Notes: generated by a model not told the origin, from the sequence alone. A DNA stretch of 13,572 nt from a virus (IMGVR_UViG_2671181050_000011), one strand, 5' to 3'; numbered from the stretch's first letter, positions 1 through 13,572 are shown. Program-made: numbers and translations.

Positions 1-102
1 AGGCGGAATATATGCGTCACCTTCACCAATAAATTCATTAGTTCCGGCCAGCAGATTATAAATTTTTATGGTCCGTGGTTGTTCACTCATTCTGAATGCC
101 AT
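1..102 (-). CDS. tfa: tail fibre assembly protein Tfa, 5' end only (first 34 codons; CDS continues beyond the window start)
   Basis: Reverse-complement translation from ATG at 102..100 gives [34 protein letters not shown], which matches the N-terminus of lambdoid Tfa proteins as I recall them. The ATG overlaps the stop of the upstream tail-fibre ORF (TAATG), the usual stf-tfa coupling. Confidence 0.8.
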
Positions 103-410
103 TACGCAAGCCTCACAATATAGTTAAATGCGATGTTTTTGACGGTGTTTTCCGCGTTACCAGCAGCGTTAACGGTGATGGTATGTCCATGTGAACCAAT
201 CGCAACGGAGTGCGTATGAGCACCAATACCGACAGTATGTGCGTGTGCACCTGCGCTTGCAGCAGTACCCGATACAGAGTGCGTATGAGCGCCTGCAGAA
301 GAAGTGTTAACACTGTATTTAGAATAATCAGGTGATCCACTTCCCGGAGCACCACTGGAACCACCTGAAACAAATGTCATCGAATGGGTATGTGCACCGG
401 CTGTCCCCAT
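102..410 (-). pseudogene. stf: side tail fibre protein (Stf-like), C-terminal ~100 codons only; remnant joined out of frame to truncated J
   Basis: The minus-strand frame ends ...[22 protein letters not shown] and carries five His-x-His motifs (AHTHS x3, AHAHT, SHGHT), typical of the C-terminal domain of T4 gp37 / lambdoid side tail fibres. No tail-fibre N-terminus is present; upstream of about 405 the J-homologous frame takes over. Confidence 0.65.
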
Positions 411-2427
411 GCATTTACCGCCCGGACTGTCAGCCTGTAATTTCCCAGCGCCAGCTGCGTGAAGCGATATGTGGTTTCCGTCGTCCGGGCCGTGCTGACC
501 AACCGCTCACTGCCGTCGTCCGCTGCCACGGTCAGGCGAAGCATAAAGCTCACCCCCTTCACCACCTTCGGCGTGTCCCAGCGCGCCAGCACCTGGTATT
601 CCCCGCTGTCTGCGGTGACTTCTGCGGTCAGGTGCTGAACTGCTGGCGGCGTGACACCATTCACCGTGCCGCTCTGGTCACCGTCAAAGTGCGCCCCGTT
701 ATCCACGATGGCTTCTTTCTCCGGTACATGCTGCACGGCAGCTTCAGCCCCCACACGCTGTACTCGGCAACGCCGTCAGGAACCCGGCTCACTTTCACCT
801 TCACGCCGTCGGTGACGGACTGGACCTCCACGCTCACCGGATTACCCTGCCCGTCAACCAGGCTTATCAGCGTGGTGCCGGAGGATGGCAGCGTGATTTC
901 ACGGTCGAGCGTCAGTGTCCGCGTCTGGCTGTTCACCGCCAGCACGCGCCCGCCGATGCTGATCCCCGCATAGTCATCATCACAGATTTCAATGACATCA
1001 CCTGGTACATGGCGAAGCCCTTCGGCACCCACGCTGAAGTCCACGGTCTGCGTTTCCAGCAGTTCCGTTTTAATCAGCCACAGCCCGGCTCGGTGCGCCT
1101 GCCCCCGCCTGGTACAGCCAAAGGCATCCATCTTCGTGACGTTACGACCGTAACGGGCAATGGCCTGCGTGTCCTCCACAAGCTCTGTCGCCGTCTCCCA
1201 GCCGTTATCCGGGTCAATCCAGTTCACCTCAACGGCATTATGGCGGTCCTTCAGGGCGCTGAAGCTGTAGCGGAACGGCGCGCCATCATCCGGCATCACC
1301 ACATTACTGCGGTTATAGGTCCACACCTTATCTGATGGTCGGTCCTGCACGAACGTCAGCGTCTGCCCGTTCCATACCGGCATACAGCGCATCGCCGAGC
1401 AGAAATCACTGAGAACATCCCACGCCTTACGCTGTGTGGTCAGCCAGGCATTACAGGTGATGCGCGGCTCCGTGCCGCCAAAACCGTCTGGCACCGACTG
1501 GTCGCAACACTGGCCGATGACATACAGCGCCCATTTATCCACATCTGCCGCACCAAGACGTTTACCCATGCCGTAGCGCGGGTGGGTCAGCATATCCCAC
1601 AGACACCAGGCCATGTTGTTGCTGTATGCTGGCTTAAACGTTCCGTCCCAGATACCGCTGTATTGCCGCGTCTGCGGGTTATAGTTCGACGGCACCTGCA
1701 GAATACGCCCGCGAAGATGATAATTACGGCTCACCTGCTGGCTGCCGAACTGCTCCGAATCCACCTGTACGCCGACCAGTGCCGTGTTCGGGTAGCACTG
1801 TTTCACATCGATGATTTCGGTGTATGACGACCAGAGCGTTTTGTTCTGCAGCTGGTCTGTGGTGCTGTCCGGCGTCATCCTGCGCATCCGGATGTTGAAC
1901 GGGCGCGGCGGCAGATTATCCACCACTACCGAGGCCAGATACTGCGAGGTGGTTTTGCCCTTAATGGTGATGTCTTTTTCCGTCACCCAGCCACCGTTAC
2001 GTTGTATCTGAACCAGCAGGCGAACTTCCGACGGATTCCTGTCCCCCTTTGAGGTGGTTTCCACCAGTGCCTGCACACCGAAGGTAAAGCGCAGACGGTC
2101 GATGTTTGCAGACGTAATGGTGCGGGTGATCGGCGTGTCATATTTCACTTCCGTACCCAGCACCGTCTCGGAGCCGGAGGATTCAAACCCCTCCGGCGGT
2201 GTCTGCTCCTGCTCACCGGCACGGAACACCACCGTGACACCGGAGATGTTGGTATTCCCCTCAGTGTCCAGCACCGGCGTACTGTTCAGCAGCACGCTTT
2301 TTAATCCATCCACCGGACCTTCAACCGGCCCTTCGCTGATGGCATCGATCACACTCAGCAACTGCGTGGACTTCAGGTTGTCCTTCGCTTCGCGCGGGGT
2401 ATGCCCCTTACTGCTTCCTTTACCCAT
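377..2427 (-). pseudogene. J: tail tip / host specificity protein J, N-terminal ~690 of ~1130 codons, disrupted by an internal frameshifting deletion and truncated at a junction with stf
   Basis: ORF 2427..661 starts MGKGSSKGHTPREAKDNLKSTQLLSVIDAISEGP..., near-identical to the lambda gpJ N-terminus as recalled. J similarity then continues in a different frame (754..377: AVQHVPEKEAIVDNGAHFDG...RAVNAWGQ) and stops at about 401. ATG at 2427..2425; 60-nt gap after I as in lambda. Confidence 0.88.
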
Positions 2428-2487
2428 TCCTCACGCTCCATAAACGACAAAACCGCCCGGAGGCGGTTTCACATAAAACATTTTGCA

Positions 2488-3135
2488 TCAGCGACCAATC
2501 ACCACAACCTGACCACCGTCCCCTTCGTCTGCCGTGCTGATCTCCTGAGAAGCCACCCGCGACCCCACGCGCATTTCACCGTACAGAACAGGCAGAACAT
2601 TGCCCTGGGCAACCATGTTATCCAGTGAGGAGAAATAGGTGTTCTGCTTACCGTTATCCGTTGTCTGTGTACGGGGAGTTCTGGCTTTCGGTGCCAGCAT
2701 CTGCGCCACACCGCCAAGGATCATACTGGCCCCCGCAGCATACATGCCCGATAAAGCCGCAGCTCCCAGCCAGCCTGCAGGGTTCCACCACGCCACTGCA
2801 ATCAGCGCCGCACCCAGCACCGCCTGAAACACACCGCCACTTTTTGCTCCCGCAAGACGCGGAACGATGTGGATCACGGCACCATTTTTCAGCGGCTCAT
2901 TAAGACGGGCTGATAATTCGTTTTCGCCTGCATCACGCCCGGCAATGCGCACCTGATACCAGCCCTCATTCAGTTTCTGACGAAACGCCGGGAGCTGTGT
3001 GACCAGTGCCCGGATGGCTTCAGCCCCCGTTTTCACACGAAGGTCGATGCGGCGGCCAAATCGTTGCAAATCCCCGTAAAGGCAGATGCGTGCCATGCCC
3101 GGTGACGCCAGAGGGAGTGTGTGCGTCGCTGCCAT
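2488..3135 (-). CDS. I: tail assembly protein I
   Basis: 215-aa ORF MAATHTLPLASPGMARICLYGDLQRFGRRIDLRVKTGAEAIRAL...GDGGQVVVIGR, very similar to lambda gpI as recalled. ATG at 3135..3133. Its 5' end overlaps K by 103 nt, as in lambda. Confidence 0.9.
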   Translation of the reverse strand: MAATHTLPLASPGMARICLYGDLQRFGRRIDLRVKTGAEAIRALVTQLPAFRQKLNEGWYQVRIAGRDAGENELSARLNEPLKNGAVIHIVPRLAGAKSGGVFQAVLGAALIAVAWWNPAGWLGAAALSGMYAAGASMILGGVAQMLAPKARTPRTQTTDNGKQNTYFSSLDNMVAQGNVLPVLYGEMRVGSRVASQEISTADEGDGGQVVVIGR

Positions 3136-3776
3136 TTGTCGGTGTACCTCTCTCGTTTACTCAGTTGTTCAGGAATATGGTGCAGCAGCTCGCCGTCGCC
3201 ACAGTAAATGGCGGCATGATTCGGCACCGATGAACCAAAACAGCACAGCAGCACGTCGCCAGGCTGCGCCTCTGTCAGTGGGACACGGTAAAAACCCGTT
3301 GCCTCCATATTGTCAAGATAGAGATTCTGGCCGTGACGCCACCAGTCATCCCCGCGATGAAAATCCGGCATCTCAATTCCCGCCAGATGGTAAGCGTCCC
3401 GGAACAGCGTGTAACAGTCCGTCACCCCGTGCTCAAAGCGCCACCCGGTGAGATGCGGCACACAGAGGAATTTATGAATCGCCCCCCGGCAGACCAGCCA
3501 CCACGGCAAATCACTCTGCACCTGCAGCCGCCGGTCGGCCTCACTCAGCCAGGGCAGACCACCGGGGTGGCTGTGGACCAGCGCCACAATCTCTCCCTGC
3601 ATTTCTGCACTCAGCCAGTCCTCCGGCGACATCCGGAAATACTCCTCCGGCTCACCGGAGATATTCACGCAGGGAAAATATCTTTCTCCCTCCGGCGTTC
3701 TCACCACGAAGCCGCACGACTCTGCTGGCGCACATCGCCGGGCGTGCGCCAGAATCGCTGATTCTGTCTCTGTCAT
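3033..3776 (-). CDS. K: tail assembly protein K (JAB/MPN-type HSHP motif plus NlpC/P60-like C-terminal region)
   Basis: 247-aa ORF MTETESAILAHARRCAPAESCGFVV...ALVHSHPGG..., lambda gpK-like. ATG at 3776..3774, 5 nt after the L stop; the lambda L-K-I-J spacing is conserved. Confidence 0.9.
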   Translation of the reverse strand: MTETESAILAHARRCAPAESCGFVVRTPEGERYFPCVNISGEPEEYFRMSPEDWLSAEMQGEIVALVHSHPGGLPWLSEADRRLQVQSDLPWWLVCRGAIHKFLCVPHLTGWRFEHGVTDCYTLFRDAYHLAGIEMPDFHRGDDWWRHGQNLYLDNMEATGFYRVPLTEAQPGDVLLCCFGSSVPNHAAIYCGDGELLHHIPEQLSKRERYTDKWQRRTHSLWRHRAWHASAFTGICNDLAAASTFV

Positions 3777-3781
3777 GGGAT

Positions 3782-4480
3782 TTACTGCGAAAGTTTGTTA
3801 ATGGAAAGGAAGCCGCCAAAGTTGCCGACGTTATTGCGAAACTTACAGCCGCTCAGGCATTTGCTGCATTTATCCTTCGTGATATCGGACGTCGGCTGGT
3901 CATATTCATCCGCGACAGCCGGACCGTGATAACCGCACTCATCACCGCGATAGGTCCAGGTGCAGGTATTAGCCAGCATGATGCGCCCCGGAAAAACGGC
4001 ACCATCCGTTTCCGTCGGTGTGGAGAGCACAAAGGAGGCACTGACCGCGCTCAGTTCGCTGCACTGCTCGATGCGCCAGCGGCTGATCACCTCCTGCTCC
4101 GGATCGGCGTCACTGTTTCCGTTGACGAAGTTCACCGCATCCAGAAAACGGGCGTAAACCTTACGCCGGACCACCGTTCCGCCGACCAGACTCTGCAGAT
4201 CTTCCGCCATCCCGGTGACCATACCGTACAGGTTAGAAACCGTCAGCGTGGGGCGCGTACTGGTGCCTTTGCCATTCAGTTCAAAACCACTCCCCTGAAT
4301 GGGATACGGCTGATACTGTCGCCCCTGCCAGGTGACCGGCTCACCTTTTTCGTTCTGCTCATTACAGAAAAAATAACGTTCTCCACCAACCTCTGTCAGG
4401 TCGATTTCCCAGAGCACCACGCTGGCCGACTGCTCCGCACGGGTGCATTCATTCAGTGTTTCCTGCCGGATAACCAACAC
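3782..4480 (-). CDS. L: minor tail protein L (Cys-rich C-terminus), but native ATG start replaced by a deletion junction; frame now opens with GTG-TTG
   Basis: 232-codon ORF ...IRQETLNECTRAEQSASVVLWEIDLTEVGGERYFFCNEQ...GGFLSINKLSQ matches lambda gpL from codon 4 onward. The first codons read GTG TTG GTT where lambda has ATG CAG GAT, and no ribosome-binding site is evident upstream. Confidence 0.8.
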   Translation of the reverse strand: MLVIRQETLNECTRAEQSASVVLWEIDLTEVGGERYFFCNEQNEKGEPVTWQGRQYQPYPIQGSGFELNGKGTSTRPTLTVSNLYGMVTGMAEDLQSLVGGTVVRRKVYARFLDAVNFVNGNSDADPEQEVISRWRIEQCSELSAVSASFVLSTPTETDGAVFPGRIMLANTCTWTYRGDECGYHGPAVADEYDQPTSDITKDKCSKCLSGCKFRNNVGNFGGFLSINKLSQ

Positions 4481-4715
4481 GGGCAGACTTCACCACATTC
4501 ACCTCGCGGATGTAGTCGCTGCCCATCGCATTCATGATGGCCCGCTGAAAGGGCAGTGTTTCCCAGCGCCCTTCCTGGTATGCGGATTCTTTCGGGAGAT
4601 AGTAATTGGCATCCGCCCATTCAACGGCGGTCTGTGGCTCCGGCCTGAACAGTGAGCGAAGCCCGGCGCGGACAAAATGCCGCAGCCTGTTAACCTGACT
4701 GTTCGATATATTCAC
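4449..4715 (-). pseudogene. A: terminase large subunit A, N-terminal ~80 codons only, fused out of frame into the start of L
   Basis: GTG-initiated frame MNISNSQVNRLRHFVRAGLRSLFRPEPQTAVEWADANYYLPKESAYQEGRWETLPFQRAIMNAMGSDYIREVNVVKSARVGY matches the lambda gpA N-terminus as recalled, then diverges (PAGNTE*). It overlaps the Nu1 stop by 26 nt, as in lambda. Confidence 0.85.
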
Positions 4716-5235
4716 TCAGCAACCCCGGTATCAGTTCATCCAGCGCGGCTGCTTTGTTCATGGCTTTGATGATATCCCGTTTCAGGAAATCAACATGTCG
4801 GTTTTCCAGTTCCGGAAAACGCCGCTGCACCGACAGGGGGATCCCGTCGAGAATACTGGCAATTTCACCTGCGATCCGCGACAGCACGAAAGTACAGAAT
4901 GCGGTTTCCACCACTTCAGCGGAGTCTCTGGCATTTTTCAGCTCCTGTGCGTCGGCCTGCGCACGCGTAAGTCGATGGCGTTCGTACTCAATAGTCCCTG
5001 GCTGGAGATCTGTCTCGCTGGCCTGCCGCAGTTCTTCAACTTCCCGGCGCAGCTTTTCGTTCTCAATTTCAGCATCCCTTTCGGCATACCATTTTATGAC
5101 GGCGGCAGAATCATAAAGCACCTCATTACCCTTGCCACCGCCTCGCAGAACGGGCATTCCCTGTTCCTGCCAGTTCTGAATGGTACGGATACTCGCACCG
5201 AAAATGTCAGCCAGCTGCTTTTTGTTGACTTCCAT
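4690..5235 (-). CDS. nohA: terminase small subunit Nu1 (cosB-binding, winged-HTH N-terminus)
   Basis: 181-aa ORF MEVNKKQLADIFGASIRTIQNWQEQGMPVLRGGGKGNEVLYDSAAVIKWYAERD...LSEYIEQSG, essentially lambda Nu1 as recalled. ATG at 5235..5233, at the expected distance from the cos end. Confidence 0.92.
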   Translation of the reverse strand: MEVNKKQLADIFGASIRTIQNWQEQGMPVLRGGGKGNEVLYDSAAVIKWYAERDAEIENEKLRREVEELRQASETDLQPGTIEYERHRLTRAQADAQELKNARDSAEVVETAFCTFVLSRIAGEIASILDGIPLSVQRRFPELENRHVDFLKRDIIKAMNKAAALDELIPGLLSEYIEQSG

Positions 5236-5412
5236 TGTTCATTCCACGGACAAAAACAGAGAAAGGAAACGACAAAGGCCAAAAAGCCCGCTTTCAGCAC
5301 CTGTCGTTTCCTTTCTTTTCAGGGGGTATTTTAAATAAAAACATTAAGTTACGACGAAGAAGAACGGAAACACCTTAAACCGGAAAATTTTCATAAATAG
5401 CGAAAACCCGCG
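5236..5412 (-). promoter_or_regulatory. cosB-equivalent region (terminase/IHF binding sites between cosN and Nu1)
   Basis: The reverse complement is near-identical to the first ~190 nt of the lambda genome as I recall it (GGGCGGCGACCTCGCGGGTTTTCGCTATTTATGAAAATTTTCCGGTTTAAGG...). Individual R and I1 sites were not mapped. Confidence 0.6.
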
Positions 5413-5424
5413 AGGTCGCCGCCC
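5413..5424 (-). other. cosN: 12-nt cohesive-end sequence (minus strand GGGCGGCGACCT)
   Basis: The plus strand reads aggtcgccgccc; the reverse complement is GGGCGGCGACCT. It is flanked on one side by cgtaacctgtcggatcacc (reverse complement of the lambda right end ...GGTGATCCGACAGGTTACG), so both cos halves are contiguous as in an integrated or circularised genome. Confidence 0.85.
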
Positions 5425-5623
5425 CGTAACCTGTCGGATCACCGGAAAGGACCCGTAAAGTGATAATGATTATCATCTACATATCACAACGTGCGTGGAG
5501 GCCATCAAACCACGTCAAATAATCAATTATGACGCAGGTATCGTATTAATTGATCTGCATCAACTTAACGTAAAAACAACTTCAGACAATACAAATCAGC
5601 GACACTGAATACGGGGCAACCTC
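5425..5623 (-). other. lambda right-end non-coding region containing cosQ
   Basis: The reverse complement matches the terminal ~200 nt of lambda as recalled (...GATGATAATCATTATCACTTTACGGGTCCTTTCCGGTGATCCGACAGGTTACG). The exact cosQ element was not delimited. Confidence 0.6.
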
Positions 5624-5857
5624 ATGTCAACGAAGAACAGAACCCGCAGAACAACAACCCGCAACATCCGCTTTCCTAACCAAATGATTGAACAAATTAA
5701 CATCGCTCTTGAGCAAAAAGGGTCCGGGAATTTCTCAGCCTGGGTCATTGAAGCCTGCCGCCGGAGACTGTGCTCAGAAAAAAGAGTTTCTTCTGAAGCA
5801 AACAAAGAAAAGAGTGACATTACTGAATTGCTCAGAAAACAGGTCAGACCAGATTGA
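5624..5857 (+). CDS. ynfO: small basic protein with a possible ribbon-helix-helix-like N-terminal region (YnfO-like)
   Basis: 77-aa ORF MSTKNRTRRTTTRNIRFPNQMIEQINIALEQKGSGNFSAWVIEACRRRL..., ATG at 5624 with a weak GGGG Shine-Dalgarno 7 nt upstream. Position and orientation match K-12 Qin ynfO. The fold assignment is inference. Confidence 0.7.
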   Translation: MSTKNRTRRTTTRNIRFPNQMIEQINIALEQKGSGNFSAWVIEACRRRLCSEKRVSSEANKEKSDITELLRKQVRPD

Positions 5858-5914
5858 AGCAATTTAGATAATCGTGCAGACTACGCCCCCTCATATCACA
5901 TGGAAGGTTTATCT

Positions 5915-6325
5915 ATGGATCAGGTAGTCATTTTTAAACAAATATTTGATAAAGTTCGAAACGATTTAAACTATCAATGGTTTTATTCTGAGCTAAAACG
6001 TCACAATGTCTCACATTACATTTACTATTTAGCCACAGAGAATGTTCATATTGTATTAAAAAATGATAATACAGTGTTATTAAAGGGCCTAAAAAACATT
6101 GTGTCTGTCAAATTTTCAAAGGATAGGCATCTTATAGAAACGACCTCTAATAAGCTGAAATCCAGAGAGATCACATTTCAGGAATACAGAAGAAACCTTG
6201 CTAAAGCAGGAGTTTTTCGGTGGGTTACAAATATCCACGAACAAAAAAGATATTACTATACCTTTGATAATTCATTACTATTTACTGAAAGCATCCAGAA
6301 AACTACACAGATCTTACCACGCTAA
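5915..6325 (+). CDS. ydfO: uncharacterised prophage protein (YdfO-like, DUF1398 family as recalled)
   Basis: ORF 5900..6325; preferred start is the ATG at 5915 ([32 protein letters not shown]...), which has GGAAGG 7 nt upstream and gives 136 aa. AT-rich codon usage, unlike the tail genes. Confidence 0.75.
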
Positions 6326-6333
6326 ACCATAAC

Positions 6334-6362
6334 GTCCGGCTTCTCTCACTCCTGAGCCGGAC
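6334..6362. other. GC-rich inverted repeat (8-bp stem GTCCGGCT / AGCCGGAC, 13-nt loop) just after ydfO
   Basis: Perfect 8-bp inverted repeat seen directly. There is no clear U-tract, so its role (terminator, RNA stability element or protein site) is unresolved. Confidence 0.3.
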
Positions 6363-6476
6363 TGCATTGGTTTAATAAAAACCATCAACAATTGTGATTT
6401 AGATATTCGGAACCATTCAAATATAACAAAACCCCGTAAAAACGAGGTTTATGGATAAATTTTATTATTGAATACA

Positions 6477-6649
6477 TCAGATTAAATTAATCTTGACATC
6501 ATAGCTTTCAAGACCCGTCATTTTTTCCCGTGCGGTAAACTGAATACTGGTAACTTCTTTCCCGGTCTTTTTCTTAAGTTCAATAATTTTTTTGTTATAT
6601 ATTCAGAAATATCTGCTTCTGCTTTTGTTTTTAAGTTTTCAATATTCAT
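6477..6649 (-). pseudogene. gnsB: GnsB-like small protein gene interrupted by a 1-nt frameshift in an A7 homopolymer
   Basis: From ATG 6649 (AAGAGGA just upstream) the frame reads MNIENLKTKAEADISEYITKK, then shifts. The continuation IIELKKKTGKEVTSIQFTAREKMTGLESYDVKINLI* lies in the +1 frame after the A-run at 6587..6593. Both halves resemble GnsA/GnsB (MNIEELKKQAETEIADFIAQKIAELNKNTGKEVSEIRFTAREKMTGLESYDVKIKIM, from memory). Confidence 0.7.
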
Positions 6650-6820
6650 CATTTCCTCTTTTAGTCTGTTATGACTTTCCAGTTACACAGTAAGTCGATT
6701 ATATGGTGCAAACGTGTAAAAGATAAGATGAAACATCGCAATAATCAACATACGATAGTCTAAATTTTACACAAACAGACAAAGAGAATTTTCCTGAATT
6801 ATCAATGCAATAGCATCAAA

Positions 6821-7051
6821 TCAACTCAAGAGCCTTATTGCTGCTTCCAGAATTTCTTCTGAAGTAACATGTCGATCCGCGGCTACATAAATGACTTTAT
6901 GATCTCCGGTCAGAGATGGAAACCCTGCGGCCATTACAGTAAGGTGTGTTTTTTCGCCATTTGGATATTCACGCATGATGGTGTTAACTCCAGTCATCGC
7001 TGGCACTACCACTGCTGGTTCAGAGTTAAAAAAAACTATGATTTTTTTCAT
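6821..7051 (-). CDS. ynfN: small uncharacterised protein (YnfN-like by position)
   Basis: ORF 6821..7093; preferred start is ATG 7051 (MKKIIVFFNSEPAVVVPAMTGVNTIMREYPNGEKTH..., 76 aa). No convincing Shine-Dalgarno, so the start is uncertain. Position matches ynfN in K-12 Qin gene order. Confidence 0.55.
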   Translation of the reverse strand: MKKIIVFFNSEPAVVVPAMTGVNTIMREYPNGEKTHLTVMAAGFPSLTGDHKVIYVAADRHVTSEEILEAAIRLLS

Positions 7052-7095
7052 GATGTTACCGTAGTATGTGAGTATCCATCGAATAGACACCAAGC

Positions 7096-7117
7096 AAAAA
7101 AGCTCCCGAAGGAGCCT
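7096..7117 (-). terminator. candidate intrinsic terminator downstream of cspI (minus-strand orientation)
   Basis: Hairpin GCTCC-cgaa-GGAGC (7102..7115); on the minus strand the stem is followed by TTTTTTGCTT. Confidence 0.45.
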
Positions 7118-7322
7118 TCATTTTCACTTTTTTAAATCCAACGACAGACGGCTGGCATTTAAGTATTGTGAAATATTATCAAATGTAATCATCATTGATT
7201 TACAAAAGATACATTTTGCCCCGAAAGGATTCATGTCAGAAACATCAAAAGATGATGTTCTATACTGGGAACCATGACAACACGGGCATCTAAAGTGAAT
7301 ATGGTTTGTAATATTGTCTACC

Positions 7323-7535
7323 TCAAAGCGCCACTACATGAACAGCGGCAGGACCTTTAGGTCCGTTCTCAATACCAAATTCAACTTCCTGATTCTCAGT
7401 TAATGTTTTGAAATCGTTGCTCTGAATTGCTGAGAAATGGACAAACACATCTTTGCTGCCATCTTTCGGCGTGATGAAACCAAAACCTTTTTCAGGGTTA
7501 AACCATTTCACTAAACCAGTCATTTTGTTAGACAT
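7323..7535 (-). CDS. cspI: cold-shock protein, CspA family (CspI-like)
   Basis: 70-aa [73 protein letters not shown] with RNP1-like (KGFGFI) and RNP2-like (VFVHF) motifs. ATG at 7535 preceded by AAAGGTAATAATT, resembling the cspA translation initiation region. Confidence 0.9.
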
Positions 7536-7898
7536 AATTATTACCTTTTGAAGAAATTAGCCCTTGGGCAGAATGGTCCGAAAAAAAAATATCAGAGAGA
7601 AAAACCAACAAGGAAATCTCAAGAGGTACAAATAATAAAATTATAACAATGACTGCTTCAGATAAATTTGTAACAAACCAGAACACCATTAACGCATGAT
7701 TAACCACCCATAGCAAGGATTACTTTTGTAAAGAAAAACACAGCAATGAAAGAATAGCTTTATTTATTAATAAAACGTGTCATTCTGATTAAGACCTTTT
7801 ATCTTACCCTTAAGATTTCAGGAATTTTGGCTCATGGAAGAGTCCTTTTTATTTAAATTTTACATTCCGCGATGTAAATGTTCCGATTTAATATTACC

Positions 7899-8922
<1,024 letters not shown>

Positions 8923-8926
<4 letters not shown>

Positions 8927-9234
8927 AGATATTTATGATGAGGACGCTCGTGCTTATTGGCAGGATTTTCAATCTTAAAGGAGTACTGATGCTGCAGATA
9001 AGACTCAACTTTTTCTGACAATTTTTCTGCTACTTCCAGGAAGACTTGCCGGACGCTCCTTCTGGCTGCTGCCTCATAAAACTCCAGCGCAGCTCCTTCA
9101 ACACGGTCCATGGCGACATCCAGGTCAAAAATTTCACCGTCAAAGCGTTCTTTGTCCTGTAAGGCTACAGTTACCGTAACTTTATTCTCAAAATTACGGA
9201 CTCCTTTCACAACCAGTTCATAGTCTTGAGTCAT
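8923..9234 (-). CDS. ydfR: uncharacterised protein between holin and endolysin (YdfR-like, DUF1327 as recalled)
   Basis: 103-aa ORF MTQDYELVVKGVRNFENKVTVTVALQDKERFDGEIFDLDVAMDRVEGAALEFYEAAARR.... ATG at 9234, 4 nt after the holin stop; its stop overlaps the endolysin start. Confidence 0.7.
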
Positions 9235-9238
9235 TGGA

Positions 9239-9454
9239 TTACTCTCCTCTCGCAGCCTTACGCCTGTCTTCTTTAATCTTGAAATAAAGATTTGTCAGAT
9301 ACGTCAGCAGGCCAAAAACCAGGCTACCCAGCACACCGATTGCAGCCCACTGTGACGGAGTTACTTTATCGAGTAACTGCAATGCCCAGAAACCAGCATT
9401 ACCCGCCGATGTGCCATAGGCAACACCTGTTGTTAACTTATCCATTGATTTCAT
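9239..9454 (-). CDS. essQ: class II holin / pinholin (phage 21 S-like) with dual-start motif
   Basis: From ATG 9454: [71 protein letters not shown] (71 aa), two transmembrane segments and a charged C-terminus. Met1-Lys-Ser-Met4 gives the holin/antiholin dual start; GAGGA lies just upstream. Confidence 0.85.
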
Positions 9455-9673
9455 ATCCTCACCCCGATGTACACGGATGGTGCAATATGTTTGAAAAGAT
9501 CGGAGTCTACGGGGTAGTTTTGACAGCACACGTTGTTCTCAACGGCGCTAAAAAAACATACACATTAAAAATGTGGGTAATTATTTTGAAAGAAAGTCAT
9601 ATATAAAATAATAATACGAGAAATGTTTTCATATTTAGTGTACTGTATACGGCCATTTATACAGGAAAAGCCT

Positions 9674-9844
9674 ATGTCAGAACGTAAAAACTCAAAATCA
9701 CGCCGTAATTATCTCGTTAAATGTTCCTGCCCAAACTGCACCCAAGAGTCAGAACACAGTTTTTCAAGAGTACAAAAAGGTGCCCTTTTGATCTGCCCTC
9801 ATTGCAACAAAGTATTCCAGACAAATCTTAAAGCTGTAGCCTGA
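9674..9844 (+). CDS. small zinc-ribbon protein (CxxC ... CxxC), possibly the Qin small protein YnfU
   Basis: ATG at 9674 with AGGA 7 nt upstream: MSERKNSKSRRNYLVKCSCPNCTQESEHSFSRVQKGALLICPHCNKVFQTNLKAVA (56 aa). Two Cys pairs are spaced as in a zinc ribbon. The ynfU name is a guess from memory. Confidence 0.55.
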   Translation: MSERKNSKSRRNYLVKCSCPNCTQESEHSFSRVQKGALLICPHCNKVFQTNLKAVA

Positions 9845-9907
9845 TTGATTTTATTAGTAACAAGTATTTTTTATATTTTAATAATATATTTAAAGCAGAT
9901 AATAAAA

Positions 9908-9926
9908 AACCCGCCTGAGCGGGTTT
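9908..9926 (-). terminator. candidate intrinsic terminator (7-bp stem AACCCGC / GCGGGTT, loop CTGA), strongest in minus-strand orientation
   Basis: On the minus strand the stem is followed by TTTTTTATTAT. It lies ~280 nt downstream of the cspB stop and upstream of the lysis cassette. Confidence 0.5.
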
Positions 9927-10207
9927 GAGATTGTGGTGCTTTTTGTGGGAGTCATCCACTTACGCACTTTGTTTTGCCATGCCAGCAGTTAGCTTCTGCT
10001 GTAAAACTATTCATGCAGCAAACCTGCACTTCACCACAATGGTTAGCATACTTTTCCTGATTAAGATTTTGCCAAATATGCTAGCCATTGTTTCATGTAT
10101 TGGACCTCCTTACTTTTTATTAAAGAGATCCAATATTCACTACTCTGTCCGTATCTCTACTCAGGCATCAGCCTTCTTCGTTATCGTATACAGACGAGCG
10201 ATGAATT

Positions 10208-10423
10208 TTAATCAGTAATGATGACATTTGCTGCTGCAGGACCTTTAGCACCACTCTCTATAGAGAAGGTAACCTTTTGACCTTCAAATAAGGTTCGATA
10301 ATTATCATTCTGAATCGCAGAAAAATGCACAAACACATCTTTACTACCATCAACAGGAGAAATAAAGCCGAAACCTTTATCAGCGTTAAACCATTTTACT
10401 AAACCAGTCATTTTATTTGACAT
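10208..10423 (-). CDS. cspB: cold-shock protein, CspA family (CspB-like)
   Basis: 71-aa [77 protein letters not shown] at 10423 with AAGGA 7 nt upstream. Divergent from cspF, as in K-12 Qin. Confidence 0.9.
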
Positions 10424-10723
10424 TCTACATTCCTTAACTTGAGCCTTTCGGCATAAATGGTTTGCATAACAGAAACGACTTCGTACTTAATTGGAGAGAC
10501 TCAAAGAAGGAATAAGTGAATAACACCTGAAATGAGAACTGCTTTAGTAAACTACTTCGTATATCGTCTGTTCTTCAAACCGACGCAATCATTAACGCAT
10601 AGTTGAACATATGAAGCAATGTTTATTTTAGACATCCAGCCATCTTCAACCCCATCAAAAAACTATAGCTTTCTTCAGGAACGTGTGTATAGTGTGCCAA
10701 GTTATCAGTATTAAGGAATTTTT

Positions 10724-10936
10724 TTGTCCCGTAAAATGACAGGAATTGTCAAAACCTTTGACGGCAAAAGCGGCAAGGGTCTTATCACCCCATCCGATGG
10801 TCGTATCGATGTCCAGCTTCATGTTTCAGCGCTCAATCTCCGCGATGCAGAAGAAATTACCACCGGATTACGCGTGGAATTTTGCCGGATAAATGGTCTG
10901 CGTGGCCCTTCAGCTGCCAATGTTTACCTTTCATGA
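10724..10936 (+). CDS. cspF: CspA-family paralogue lacking the aromatic RNP motifs (CspF/CspH-like), apparent TTG start
   Basis: [70 protein letters not shown]. Codon 1 is TTG (10724..10726) with AGGA 6 nt upstream; the first ATG (10736) has no Shine-Dalgarno at proper spacing. Confidence 0.85.
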
Positions 10937-10990
10937 GCTATATTAAAGCTTTAATTTCAGGCCCCATCGGATCACACATGGAGAGTTTTT

Positions 10991-11080
10991 ATGAATAACC
11001 CCGTCTGTCTTGATGACTGGTTGATTGGCTTTAAAAGCTTATGCTGTACTTTGGCCGTAATAGCTCTGCTAATAATATAA
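10991..11080 (+). CDS. candidate 29-aa hydrophobic small protein (unannotated-size ORF)
   Basis: GGAGAG 5 nt upstream of the ATG: [29 protein letters not shown]. The C-terminal half is hydrophobic and could span a membrane. Too short for the supplied ORF track. Confidence 0.3.
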
Positions 11081-11230
11081 TAAGCAGACTCATTGTGTTT
11101 AGGGACATTGTACTGGAAGAAAACATTTTAAACATCAGGCAAATAACCAAGTCACCAGCTAAATAATAAGTTAACAGACATGAGTCCCGGGATGAGATTC
11201 AACATTACCATTGCCCCATTTAAAGCACAA

Positions 11231-11248
11231 AACCCGCTCATCAGCGGG
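11231..11248. terminator. bidirectional-looking intrinsic terminator hairpin (7-bp stem ACCCGCT / AGCGGGT, loop CATC)
   Basis: The plus strand has AAAA before and TTTTCTACTTTTTCTT after the stem; the minus strand has TTTGTGCTTT after it. It sits between the Q stop (11358) and cspF, where a lambdoid tR' would be expected. Confidence 0.5.
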
Positions 11249-11286
11249 TTTTCTACTTTTTCTTAACGTCGGGTATACAAAGCCCA

Positions 11287-11315
11287 TCGTTGAAAAAATT
11301 TTATCCATATTTTTT
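11287..11315 (-). promoter_or_regulatory. candidate sigma-70 late promoter (pR'-like) downstream of Q
   Basis: On the minus strand: TTGCAT (11315..11310), 17-nt spacer, TAAAAT (11292..11287). It is ~45-70 nt downstream of the Q stop and upstream of the 11231..11248 hairpin. No qut/pause site was verified. Confidence 0.35.
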
Positions 11316-11357
11316 GAAAAATGCAAACATCATGTCGCCATCTTCAGCAAAAATCAT

Positions 11358-12110
11358 TTATCTCGTCACCTTCCTCAATTGCGCTTCCGCGTATGCTTCT
11401 TCCTGCCAGCACTTTGTTACCAGTTTACCAATGACGTCCGCATACCCCTTATACCACTGATAATCGGTCAGGTCTGGTACCAGCTTCTGGACATGACGTC
11501 GTGCCAGCGTGGTCGGTAAACGACTAAACCGGTTTCCATTACAACGCCCACAAATCTTATATACCGGTACGCCATGAAACCGGGTTCTTTTTTCATCCAG
11601 AACAATCCCTTTACCCTTACACCCTCTGCACGCTGTGCTGGCTTCGCCCTTACCATGGCAATGCTGACATAGTTCCTTCACCCATTCTTCCTTGATTACA
11701 GATTCCCCGCGTCTGTAGTGTTTCACCACTTCGCGCAATACATTATAAAATCCCGTACCTGAACAATGCTCACAGCGAGCCTTACTTGCCGCAGACCTGG
11801 AGTAATCAGCAAAGGCAAAACTCACGAGGTAAGGAATAATCTGTAACCGGATTTCTTCACTCAATTTGTTCAATGTCGGGTTATCCAGTGCCATCGCGTA
11901 ATTTAGCAGGCCTTCAATCGCAAACTGAGGGTCCTGAACACCAACTTTTGCCAGAAATAAGGCCAACCCAAATGGTGCTTTCGACTGCACCATCCTCTGC
12001 GCTGCCATTACATCCGTAATTGTTAAACAACCGGTGCCTGTCGCTGGAGCGTCATCGCTCAATTTTGGAGATTTTGGGGAGTAATATTTTGGTAAGGCTT
12101 CAAGGTTCAT
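11358..12110 (-). CDS. quuQ: late-gene antiterminator Q (Cys-rich, multiple CxxC zinc-binding motifs)
   Basis: ORF 11358..12140; preferred start ATG 12110 (MNLEALPKYYSPKSPK..., 250 aa) with GGAG 7 nt upstream. Motifs CEHCSGTG, CQHCHGKG, CRGCKGKG and CGRCNGN are present. Position is immediately upstream of the lysis region, as for Q. Confidence 0.88.
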   Translation of the reverse strand: MNLEALPKYYSPKSPKLSDDAPATGTGCLTITDVMAAQRMVQSKAPFGLALFLAKVGVQDPQFAIEGLLNYAMALDNPTLNKLSEEIRLQIIPYLVSFAFADYSRSAASKARCEHCSGTGFYNVLREVVKHYRRGESVIKEEWVKELCQHCHGKGEASTACRGCKGKGIVLDEKRTRFHGVPVYKICGRCNGNRFSRLPTTLARRHVQKLVPDLTDYQWYKGYADVIGKLVTKCWQEEAYAEAQLRKVTR

Positions 12111-12123
12111 GCTCGTTCTCCAC

Positions 12124-13173
12124 TTACGCCAGTACGCCAATTGCCAGCGCGCGATCGATAAAACGAAATATCAGCTCCAGTTGGGAGCCATACTTATCTT
12201 CAAATGCCACTGTATCCGTATGCAGCTCGTTGTGATGCTTTCTGCACAAAGGCAACACAAAGAGATCATGTGCTTTTGTTCCCATTCCGCCCTGCCCGTG
12301 ACCAATCAGATGATGCGGATCGTCGGCTGGCATACCGCAGCAAGCACACGGCTGTGTCTTAACCCAACGTGTGTATTTCTCCTTAACCCAGCGGCGACGT
12401 TTAGGCAGCTTCATGAAAGATTCCGGAGACTCTGGATCAACGGTGATGCTTACCACCGTCTTTTCCTGTGGTGATTTTTGTTGCTGGTGGGCGTAAGGCA
12501 ACGGTGCAAGATTTTTTGTGCGTTGTTTCAATATGCTGGTGGCGGTCTGCTCTCCCGGTACGATGTCGCTTTCGCGGTACACCGAGCAGATTTTTTCCGC
12601 TGGTAATCCCAGCGAACGACGCGATACAGCCTCAGGTAGTGCATCCACCACCTGATTGCAGACCGCCCACCAGGATAATTCAGCCAAAGATAATTCCCGC
12701 TCCTGCGTACCGCTTATTGCGTGACGGATGACGTCAATCACCCATGCTGTCAGATTTTGTTGAGCAAGCAGCTCCAGTGATTCCGATGTCTGGTCACGCA
12801 GTTGGTTGTCGCAGTGCCAGCACAACACCATTGCGCCGGTACCATAACGGTGAATGACTGTTTCAGTGTGATGGTAATCGCCATTAGGCCACTGGCAGGA
12901 TGTAACATGACGTAATAGCCAGTCGGACAATGCGCCAACGCCGCCAGCAGCACGAATCACCCGTTCGTTACTAAAAAACGGCAGCAATGTTTTGTCTTCC
13001 GCCAGCGGCTGGCGAACGGCAGGAACGACTCCGGATGGCAGATTACGCATGCTTTTTGGTTCCGGTTCCACCAGCACTCGAGGATTATGAAATATCTGTA
13101 TGGATTCACGGCCCGGCTTAAGGACCACCAGCCCAAGCTCAGGCACCAGAACAGGTCTAAGTAATACCCGCAC
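12124..13173 (-). CDS. ydfU: YdfU-like protein (DUF968 as recalled) with C-terminal HNH-like Cys/His motif
   Basis: ORF 12124..13212; preferred start is GTG 13173 (349 aa), which has GGAGG upstream and abuts the rem stop. C-terminal motif CACCGMPADDPHHLIGHGQGG...LCRKHHNELH. Confidence 0.8.
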   Translation of the reverse strand: MRVLLRPVLVPELGLVVLKPGRESIQIFHNPRVLVEPEPKSMRNLPSGVVPAVRQPLAEDKTLLPFFSNERVIRAAGGVGALSDWLLRHVTSCQWPNGDYHHTETVIHRYGTGAMVLCWHCDNQLRDQTSESLELLAQQNLTAWVIDVIRHAISGTQERELSLAELSWWAVCNQVVDALPEAVSRRSLGLPAEKICSVYRESDIVPGEQTATSILKQRTKNLAPLPYAHQQQKSPQEKTVVSITVDPESPESFMKLPKRRRWVKEKYTRWVKTQPCACCGMPADDPHHLIGHGQGGMGTKAHDLFVLPLCRKHHNELHTDTVAFEDKYGSQLELIFRFIDRALAIGVLA

Positions 13174-13174
13174 G

Positions 13175-13453
13175 TTACCTCCAGATCCGTTGCTGGAAAG
13201 TGCGGGACGCACGTGGTGGGCGTTCGGAATAAGGCAGCCTGACAGAGATTATCCAGTGCCGATAGTCGAGACTGAGAGCTTTCTTAACCTCGAACCCGCG
13301 CCTGCGGTAAGAATGAATCAGCCATTCGGCCTGTTCTGCAGTGCATGGAGGGTGCTGGAACCATTCAGACTTGAATGCGTGAGAATACCGCCCGTGCGTG
13401 CAGGCAAGAACGGGCGAATTATCAGAATTGTAATATTTTGCGTTGCGTGCCAT
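13175..13453 (-). CDS. rem: small uncharacterised prophage protein (Rem-like by position)
   Basis: ORF MARNAKYYNSDNSPVLACTHGRYSHAFKSEWFQHPPCTAEQAEWLIHSYRRRGFEVKK..., ATG at 13453 with GGAG 8 nt upstream. Location 5' of ydfU matches K-12 Qin order. Confidence 0.75.
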   Translation of the reverse strand: MARNAKYYNSDNSPVLACTHGRYSHAFKSEWFQHPPCTAEQAEWLIHSYRRRGFEVKKALSLDYRHWIISVRLPYSERPPRASRTFQQRIWR

Positions 13454-13572
13454 CGGTTTTCTCCGGTGGCACGGTGTTACTCAGCGGGAGTTCAGCCCAT
13501 AAGCGCTAACTTAAGGGTTGAACCATCTGAAGAATGCGACGCCTCGGTGCCTCGTTAAGACGATGCCTCGCG

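Follow-up and report, generated by a model that had tools for sequence, protein, structure and literature searches.

Positions 5236-5623 of the window (the whole 13,572-nt stretch of DNA analyzed here) were confirmed, on all sequence-level criteria applied, as a cos site of the lambda type. The interval corresponds exactly to the intergenic region between nohA and ynfO, and it carries all elements for the initiation (cosN, I2, and cosB) and the termination (cosQ and cosN) of packaging. As judged from gene order and sequence identity, the surrounding element is a Qin-type cryptic lambdoid prophage of Escherichia coli in a strain-specific deletion state. Within it, the site occupies its usual position, with the late/lysis region on one side and nohA on the other. 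It is highly likely that the Qin-type cos is a relic with a functional allele, at which a cut by the terminase of a helper phage would result in dead-end packaging or in a recombination-stimulating break. The Qin-type cos itself is ordinary, very widespread, and already known, because the same arrangement is present in Qin and DLP12 of strain K-12 and in most E. coli genomes and because the scenario is in print. The sole new detail is the deletion endpoint of this strain, where codon 82 of A is fused to L.

When the window was searched for the 12-mer of cosN, GGGCGGCGACCT, a single exact match was found, at 5413-5424 of the minus strand. Taken by itself, this match is weak evidence, since 14 of 200 shuffled sequences also contained the 12-mer with one mismatch or none. 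The decisive evidence for the identity of the site was a colinear alignment of 1,317 bp with lambda. For this alignment, the two ends of lambda were joined and the junction was aligned to the window; lambda 48141..48502 followed by 1..956 corresponded to window 5786..4470 (minus strand), with 20 substitutions and one 1-bp deletion. Within it, the 388 bp of lambda 48167..52, comprising cosQ, cosN, and I2, were identical in the window. The claim of the first-pass annotation that a lambda cohesive-end 12-mer is present here between lambda-like flanks was borne out by the exact 12-mer and this alignment. Rfam and tRNA scans of the window gave no match at cos and detected only two cspA leaders elsewhere, and a promoter and terminator scan around cos gave a result no better than that for shuffled sequences.

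The subsites were found on the minus strand in the order and with the spacing of lambda. The packaging-termination subsite cosQ (GGGTCCT; 5448..5454) is identical to that of lambda, at lambda 48473-48479 according to the coordinates reportedly given by Wieczorek and Feiss (2001). Lambda positions 48473-48486 were invariant in all 11 aligned cos regions, with variable flanks, and a conserved 7-bp element was located approximately 30 bp upstream of the nick, in accordance with the published cosQ size of 7 bp (PMC4669245). The nicking site cosN, reported to extend over ~22 bp (PMC4856287), was assigned to 5408..5429 on the minus strand (boundaries approximate) and is identical to lambda; it includes the 12-nt cohesive end at 5413-5424 (minus strand). 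By analogy with lambda, nicks are predicted at 5425/5424 on the minus strand and at 5413/5412 on the plus strand, and the left cohesive end would begin at 5424 on the minus strand. The DNA ends at 5413 and 5424 that had been proposed from the sequence match these predicted, lambda-derived nick positions. The 23-mer GGTTACGGGGCGGCGACCTCGCG, which spans cosN, had an exact and unique match in the closest genome.

The bent, AT-rich spacer I2 (5375..5407, minus strand; lambda bp 18-50) is identical to lambda in both sequence and length. The spacing between cosN and R3 is therefore as in lambda, with no indel across lambda 18-50; I2 is essential, and the spacing between cosN and cosB is critical (PMC4856287). 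In cosB, the TerS binding site R3 was located at ~5357..5372 (minus strand; lambda ~53-68). Its sequence, TGTTTCCGTTCTTCTT, is the third and imperfect copy of the repeat, and it contains the substitution C53T at window 5372. Lambda bases 56 and 59, which matter for recognition, and base 58, which matters for IHF independence (PMC4669245, Figure 2 legend), are critical and were unchanged in the window. The IHF-binding and bend segment I1, with limits taken from PMC4856287 (lambda 65-90), lies at ~5335..5360 (minus strand) and contains A73G at window 5352. R2 (5302..5316, minus strand; lambda 109-123), which has the opposite orientation to R3 and R1, and R1 (5260..5274, minus strand; lambda 152-166) were both identical to lambda and form a perfect 15-nt inverted repeat, the substitution C151T (window 5275) lying just outside R1. 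All components of cosB, namely R3, the IHF site I1, inverted R2, and R1, were thus present, with subsite definitions taken from papers of the Feiss laboratory (PMC4669245; PMC4856287).

The cosB region of the window differed from that of lambda at five places: 53 C>T (window 5372), 73 A>G (5352), 102 T>C (5323), a 1-bp deletion with A>G at 137/138, and 151 C>T (5275). These were compared in an alignment of the cos regions of the window, lambda, K-12 Qin, K-12 DLP12, and seven deposited phage genomes, to which HK630 and D2 were later added. All five variants co-occurred in phages 2H10 (LR595862) and PhiR70_1 (PV340577), whose cosB differed from that of the window solely at lambda position 134. 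Individually, 53T was also found in 2H10, PhiR70_1, and K-12 DLP12; 73G was shared by 2H10, PhiR70_1, PhiR34_1, PhiR42_1, K-12 Qin, and DLP12; and 151T was found in 2H10 and PhiR70_1. The 1-bp "deletion" was common to all 12 non-lambda sequences aligned. The viability of 2H10 and PhiR70_1 was assumed because both were deposited as complete phage genomes for which a propagation host is named. Since all variants were found in phage genomes, the cosB of the window is, as far as its sequence indicates, a natural phage-type allele, joined to cosQ, cosN, and I2 of the lambda type. The exact combination of a lambda-type cosQ side with a 2H10-type cosB was found in no phage of the collection, the closest differing at lambda 134. 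Comparison with the lambda ends, suggested beforehand as a check for mutated cos elements, thus left cosN and cosQ unmutated and traced every cosB variant to deposited phage genomes.

The two cryptic prophages of K-12 were also informative with respect to cosB. In K-12 Qin (b1548 nohA to b4533 ynfO), the cosQ-cosN-I2 sequence was identical to that of the window, whereas its cosB carried 54A, 134A, 145G, and 176G, the allele of PhiR34_1 and PhiR42_1, in place of the 53T, 138G, and 151T that the window shares with 2H10 and PhiR70_1. DLP12 carried three of the window variants (53T, 73G, and 102C), and on its cosQ side it differed from lambda and the window at ~10 positions. That these three variants are tolerated is supported by the activity of all lambda recombinants that had acquired the DLP12 nu1 (PMC3945230). 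This strain-to-strain mosaic of cosB suggests repeated recombination at cos between cryptic prophages and infecting phages, and would represent a small direct trace of phage-prophage exchange.

On one side of the cos site, nohA (4690..5235, minus strand) encodes a full-length homolog of the terminase small subunit Nu1. The 181-aa NohA was identical to lambda Nu1 at 179 of 181 residues (changes A75T and L132I), including the whole of residues 1-74 with the N-terminal DNA-binding part; it matched the Pfam profile Phage_Nu1 (E = 3.9e-101), and the gene is annotated as nohA in the closest genome. The adjoining remnant of A (A'; 4449..4715, minus strand) comprises gpA codons 1-82 followed by six unrelated codons and a stop codon. 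It gave a weak match to Pfam GpA_ATPase, covering profile positions 3-40 only, and the annotation of the closest genome lists it as an incomplete pseudogene. The deletion junction was located at 4470..4475 (minus strand), where lambda ~956 in A is joined to lambda ~13435 at the start of L with a 3-bp TAT microhomology. With lambda 957-13434 (~12.5 kb), the remainder of A, all head genes, and most tail genes were lost, the missing genes being W, B, C, Nu3, D, E, FI, FII, Z, U, V, G, T, H, and M. No head genes were found in the window by annotation, translation, or Pfam search. The description of a full-length Nu1 next to an A gene of ~80 codons without capsid genes was hence accurate (82 codons were found).

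As judged from this gene content, the element is unable to package itself, as had been stated in the first-pass annotation, because functional A, portal, and capsid genes are all missing; the genes that a lambdoid prophage needs in order to package itself, for an intact large terminase subunit, a portal, and a capsid, were not found. Compared with lambda cos, then, the site has the same subsites in the same arrangement and an accompanying Nu1 that is 99% identical, and it differs in its cosB variants and in lacking functional gpA, portal, and capsid proteins.

Beyond the junction, a tail remnant (661..4480) was ~95% identical to lambda 13434-17196. It contains, all on the minus strand, L (3782-4480; Pfam Phage_tail_L), K (3033-3776; NLPC_P60), I (2488-3135; Lambda_tail_I), and a truncated J (661-2427; GpJ domains). 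At the A'-L junction, a GTG of the A remnant is in frame with L, whose ORF remains of full length and has three new residues at its N-terminus. Another internal deletion or rearrangement was observed at window 75-251, 400-739, and 736-2733. In the J homology, a gap of ~69 bp separates lambda 17196 from 17266, and the homology ends at ~lambda 17605. A short remnant past J matches lambda 21824-22000, at the stf/tfa junction; most of the side tail fiber gene, as well as lom, is therefore missing. On the other side of cos, the gene bounding the cosQ side is ynfO (5624..5857, plus strand), which was assigned by annotation and Pfam (DUF3950). The right end of lambda contains a 64-codon minus-strand ORF (~lambda 48303 to 48109) that is unannotated in NC_001416, and its first ~50 residues were identical to YnfO of the window (window 5624-5786 versus lambda 48303-48141). 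The homology between the window and lambda ends inside ynfO, at lambda 48141.

The window was 99.9% identical to the genome of E. coli strain 1332KP, the closest genome, where it lies in a prophage remnant of ~25 kb between ydfJ and rspB. In 1332KP, the genes to the left of cos are tfaQ, a tail-fiber remnant, J', I, K, L, A', and nohA, and those to the right are ynfO, ydfO, gnsB, ynfN, cspI, rzpQ, rrrQ, ydfR, and ess, followed by cspB, cspF, ydfT(Q), ydfU, rem, hokD, and relBE. The assignment to Qin was made by synteny, as both the gene order and the insertion site between ydfJ and rspB, the latter read in 1332KP, were those of K-12 Qin. K-12 Qin shares with the element the chromosomal site (ydfJ..rspB) and the flanking genes ynfO, ydfO, gnsB, cspI, rzpQ, rrrQ, essQ, cspB/F, ydfT, and ydfU. 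The deletion in K-12 Qin is deeper: nohA runs straight into stfQ, and A', L, K, I, and J are absent, whereas the window keeps 82 codons of A and the tail genes L-K-I-J'. In 1332KP, outside the window (L001 27779-33125), IS1414 and IS3 occupy the place that the dicA/dicC immunity region and dicB/dicF take in K-12. The excisionase and integrase genes of Qin are annotated as intact in 1332KP, whereas intQ of K-12 is a pseudogene.

A 451-bp region around cos matched 4615 of 5426 complete E. coli genomes, and the match covered at least 80% of the query in 3303 genomes; the genes flanking the matching regions were annotated as nohA/ynfO or nohD/ylcI. Given the matches in 4615 of 5426 genomes, the cos relic is among the commonest prophage relics of the species. 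A cos next to nohA or nohD in Qin and DLP12 belongs to the standard annotation of E. coli K-12. DLP12 is a different prophage at another location, with the same architecture: ylcI (a paralog of ynfO), cos, nohD (a full-length Nu1 homolog), and aaaD (a truncated A). Phage geneticists regard the cos sites of cryptic prophages as a nuisance and avoid them, for instance by working with E. coli C, where "no cosN-lambda is present." Abortive packaging, cos-stimulated recombination, and the rescue of phage functions are consequences that earlier work has discussed and in part shown. An explicit statement on the cos site of Qin was not found in the open-access literature searched.

Cutting of a Qin-type cos by the terminase of a helper phage is probably still possible, and the earlier proposal that the site remains a substrate for such a terminase is well supported by inference from the intact cos sequence and from lambda biology. 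A terminase of lambda specificity would come from a lambdoid phage, either infecting or induced. Nu1 and IHF would bind R3-I1-R2, and gpA would nick cosN at 5424/5425 and 5412/5413. The terminase complex would remain on the nohA side, and DNA would be translocated toward lower window coordinates in the order nohA, A', L, K, I, and J', and then, with the gene order of 1332KP, tfaQ, pinQ, and ydfJ through marRAB to lsr; if packaging starts here, the tail remnant (661..4480) would be the first DNA into the head. In the passive-prophage or "doc" packaging described for lambda, a helper terminase likewise starts at a chromosomal cos and packages toward Nu1-A-J and beyond (PMC4669245). Those studies used complete lambda prophages, whereas Qin here is a deletion remnant, and nearly all packaged DNA would therefore be bacterial. 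The literature on doc particles reportedly includes Little and Gottesman in 1971 and Sternberg and Weisberg in 1975.

Helper terminase is efficient on repressed, unreplicated cos sites in the chromosome (Feiss, 2015, PMC4669245), and 1-4 virions per cell, approximately the number of chromosomes, are produced provided that another cos is located a genome length downstream (PMC4669245). In lambda packaging, termination needs such a downstream cosQ-cosN (PMC4669245; PMC4856287; PMC9026076). A search with the 23-mer at three or fewer mismatches identified no second cosN-like site in the ~56 kb downstream, in the direction of packaging, in 1332KP; this 99.9%-identical genome was searched in place of the source genome of the window. 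The ~56 kb contained tail remnants, pinQ, ydfJ, dcp, marRAB, sad, uxaB, lsr, and hipBA. As no cosQ-cosN is present one genome length downstream, packaging initiated here could not terminate; the head would fill and the motor would stall, giving a tailless, non-infectious particle, as described for a lone prophage cos (headful-stalled particles; PMC4669245, section 18).

The alternative outcome would be that the double-strand break at cos stimulates recombination with replicating phage DNA, and for a prophage cos a downstream crossover with phage DNA has been described to yield a recombinant phage (PMC4669245). Recombination between lambda and DLP12 was ~100-fold above that at the tail-fiber homologies of Rac or Qin, although DLP12 also offers a much more extended homology; of 19 lambda-DLP12 junctions, 10 were at cos (PMC3945230). 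Recombinants carrying the DLP12 nu1 in place of nu1 were all active (De Paepe et al., PMC3945230). The cos site would thereby act as an entry point for swapping cos, nu1, and late-region alleles between phages and the cryptic prophage, and such exchange would also account for the persistently phage-like sequence of the site. Qin and DLP12 are the sources of the lambda qin/qsr' substitution phages. Fisher and Feiss (1980) reportedly observed that a lambda cos mutant reverted through recombination with a defective prophage. In this sense, cryptic prophages remain substrates for the enzymes of incoming phages as well as reservoirs of functional packaging alleles, and the cos site described here appears to be a relic, not an adaptation, yet with a functional allele.

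Three other readings were weighed against dead-end packaging or recombination at a relic cos. The first, that a helper phage packages from this cos and transduces the element together with the neighboring chromosome, in a form of cos hitchhiking comparable to lateral transduction and to cos-type phage-inducible chromosomal islands (PICIs), is unlikely. The intact cos of lambda specificity is compatible with it, and potential helpers are common, since 3244 of 5426 genomes contained the part of the lambda-type A missing here. There is a documented case in which a defective lambdoid prophage was packaged in trans via a shared cos: in E. coli O157 Sakai, the defective prophage Sp4 was packaged, probably by the terminase of the co-resident Sp14, via an identical cos (PMC2669165). 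Similarly, PICIs such as EcCICFT073 and its relatives are chromosomal elements with lambda-like cosQ and cosN, and are packaged by lambda-like helpers in dependence on the helper terminase (PMC9026076). The element of 1332KP, at ~25 kb and with int and xis annotated as intact, could in addition give a dimer of ~50 kb that would fit a lambda head.

However, the missing downstream cosQ-cosN within ~56 kb in 1332KP and the tailless, non-infectious particle expected from a lone prophage cos (PMC4669245) stand against hitchhiking. Transduction of the locus and the neighboring chromosome, as put forward in the first-pass annotation, was for the former reason not supported as an outcome of any significance. 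No replication module was found in the 1332KP element, where IS elements occupy the place of the immunity and replication genes of K-12, and concatemers or dimers would therefore be very rare. Neither an Rpp-like redirecting protein nor a capsid-size gene was detected. The packaging of Sp4 relied on excision and regional amplification (PMC2669165); Sp4 also keeps most of its genome, whereas nothing suggests replication of the Qin element. A rare route in strains with this less eroded Qin, in which the element excises, dimerizes (~50 kb), and is packaged from cos to cos by a helper of lambda specificity, or in which packaging from the lone cos mobilizes ydfJ-marRAB-lsr, is very improbable. The mobilization of ydfJ-marRAB-lsr could use a downstream crossover or nuclease trimming and could occur at a frequency well above that of generalized transduction; if it does take place, it would be the equivalent, for cos phages, of lateral transduction, with a cryptic prophage as its driver.

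The second reading regards the site as an inert fossil whose cos is intact merely through recent deletion, and which is never cut in vivo owing to topology or occlusion and has no consequence. The decay of the element via deletions and IS insertions is consistent with this reading, but the efficient use of repressed chromosomal prophage cos sites by helper terminase (1-4 virions per cell; PMC4669245), the clustering of junctions at the chromosomal cos of DLP12 in recombination upon lambda infection (PMC3945230), and the phage-like mosaic of Qin cosB alleles, which vary by strain, make it quite improbable.

In the third, cosB, NohA, and the 82-residue gpA fragment would act as a decoy that sequesters helper terminase and cuts phage yield, as a weak anti-phage defense. 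Initiation at a prophage cos has been noted to waste proheads and to lower efficiency (Feiss et al., PMC4669245). A' retains the extreme N-terminus of gpA. The work of Frackman and Feiss is said to place the Nu1-interaction region in this part of gpA. Against these points, A' is absent from K-12 Qin and is therefore not a conserved feature, and one to few chromosomal cos copies would face many copies of phage cos. Lambda grows productively on K-12 with the cos/noh loci of both Qin and DLP12, and nohD works in lambda in place of nu1 (PMC3945230); on these two grounds the decoy reading was rejected as extremely improbable. The titration of terminase through Nu1 and cosB, which had also been suggested, is thus unlikely, and with a single chromosomal copy, a NohA close to wild-type Nu1, and a functional nohD, complementation would be likelier than poisoning.

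Classification as a PICI or another satellite was rejected, as PICIs have their own cosB, an Rpp that retargets the helper TerS, int/xis, a replication module, and derepression induced by the helper, whereas the window has a lambda cosB and a plain Nu1, with no int/xis, replication module, helper-responsive regulation, Rpp, or own cosB.

Two further features of the window were observed away from the cos site. The last 74 bases (13499-13572) lie outside the best genome matches, all of which end at 13498, and the end of the window past ydfU is possibly a strain-specific junction. The two cspA leaders detected by Rfam were full-length matches to the cspA thermoregulator (RF01766) at 7296-7682 (minus strand; 111.9 bits) and 10192-10584 (minus strand; 158.8 bits), and are the leaders of cspI and cspB, two cold-shock genes carried by the prophage.
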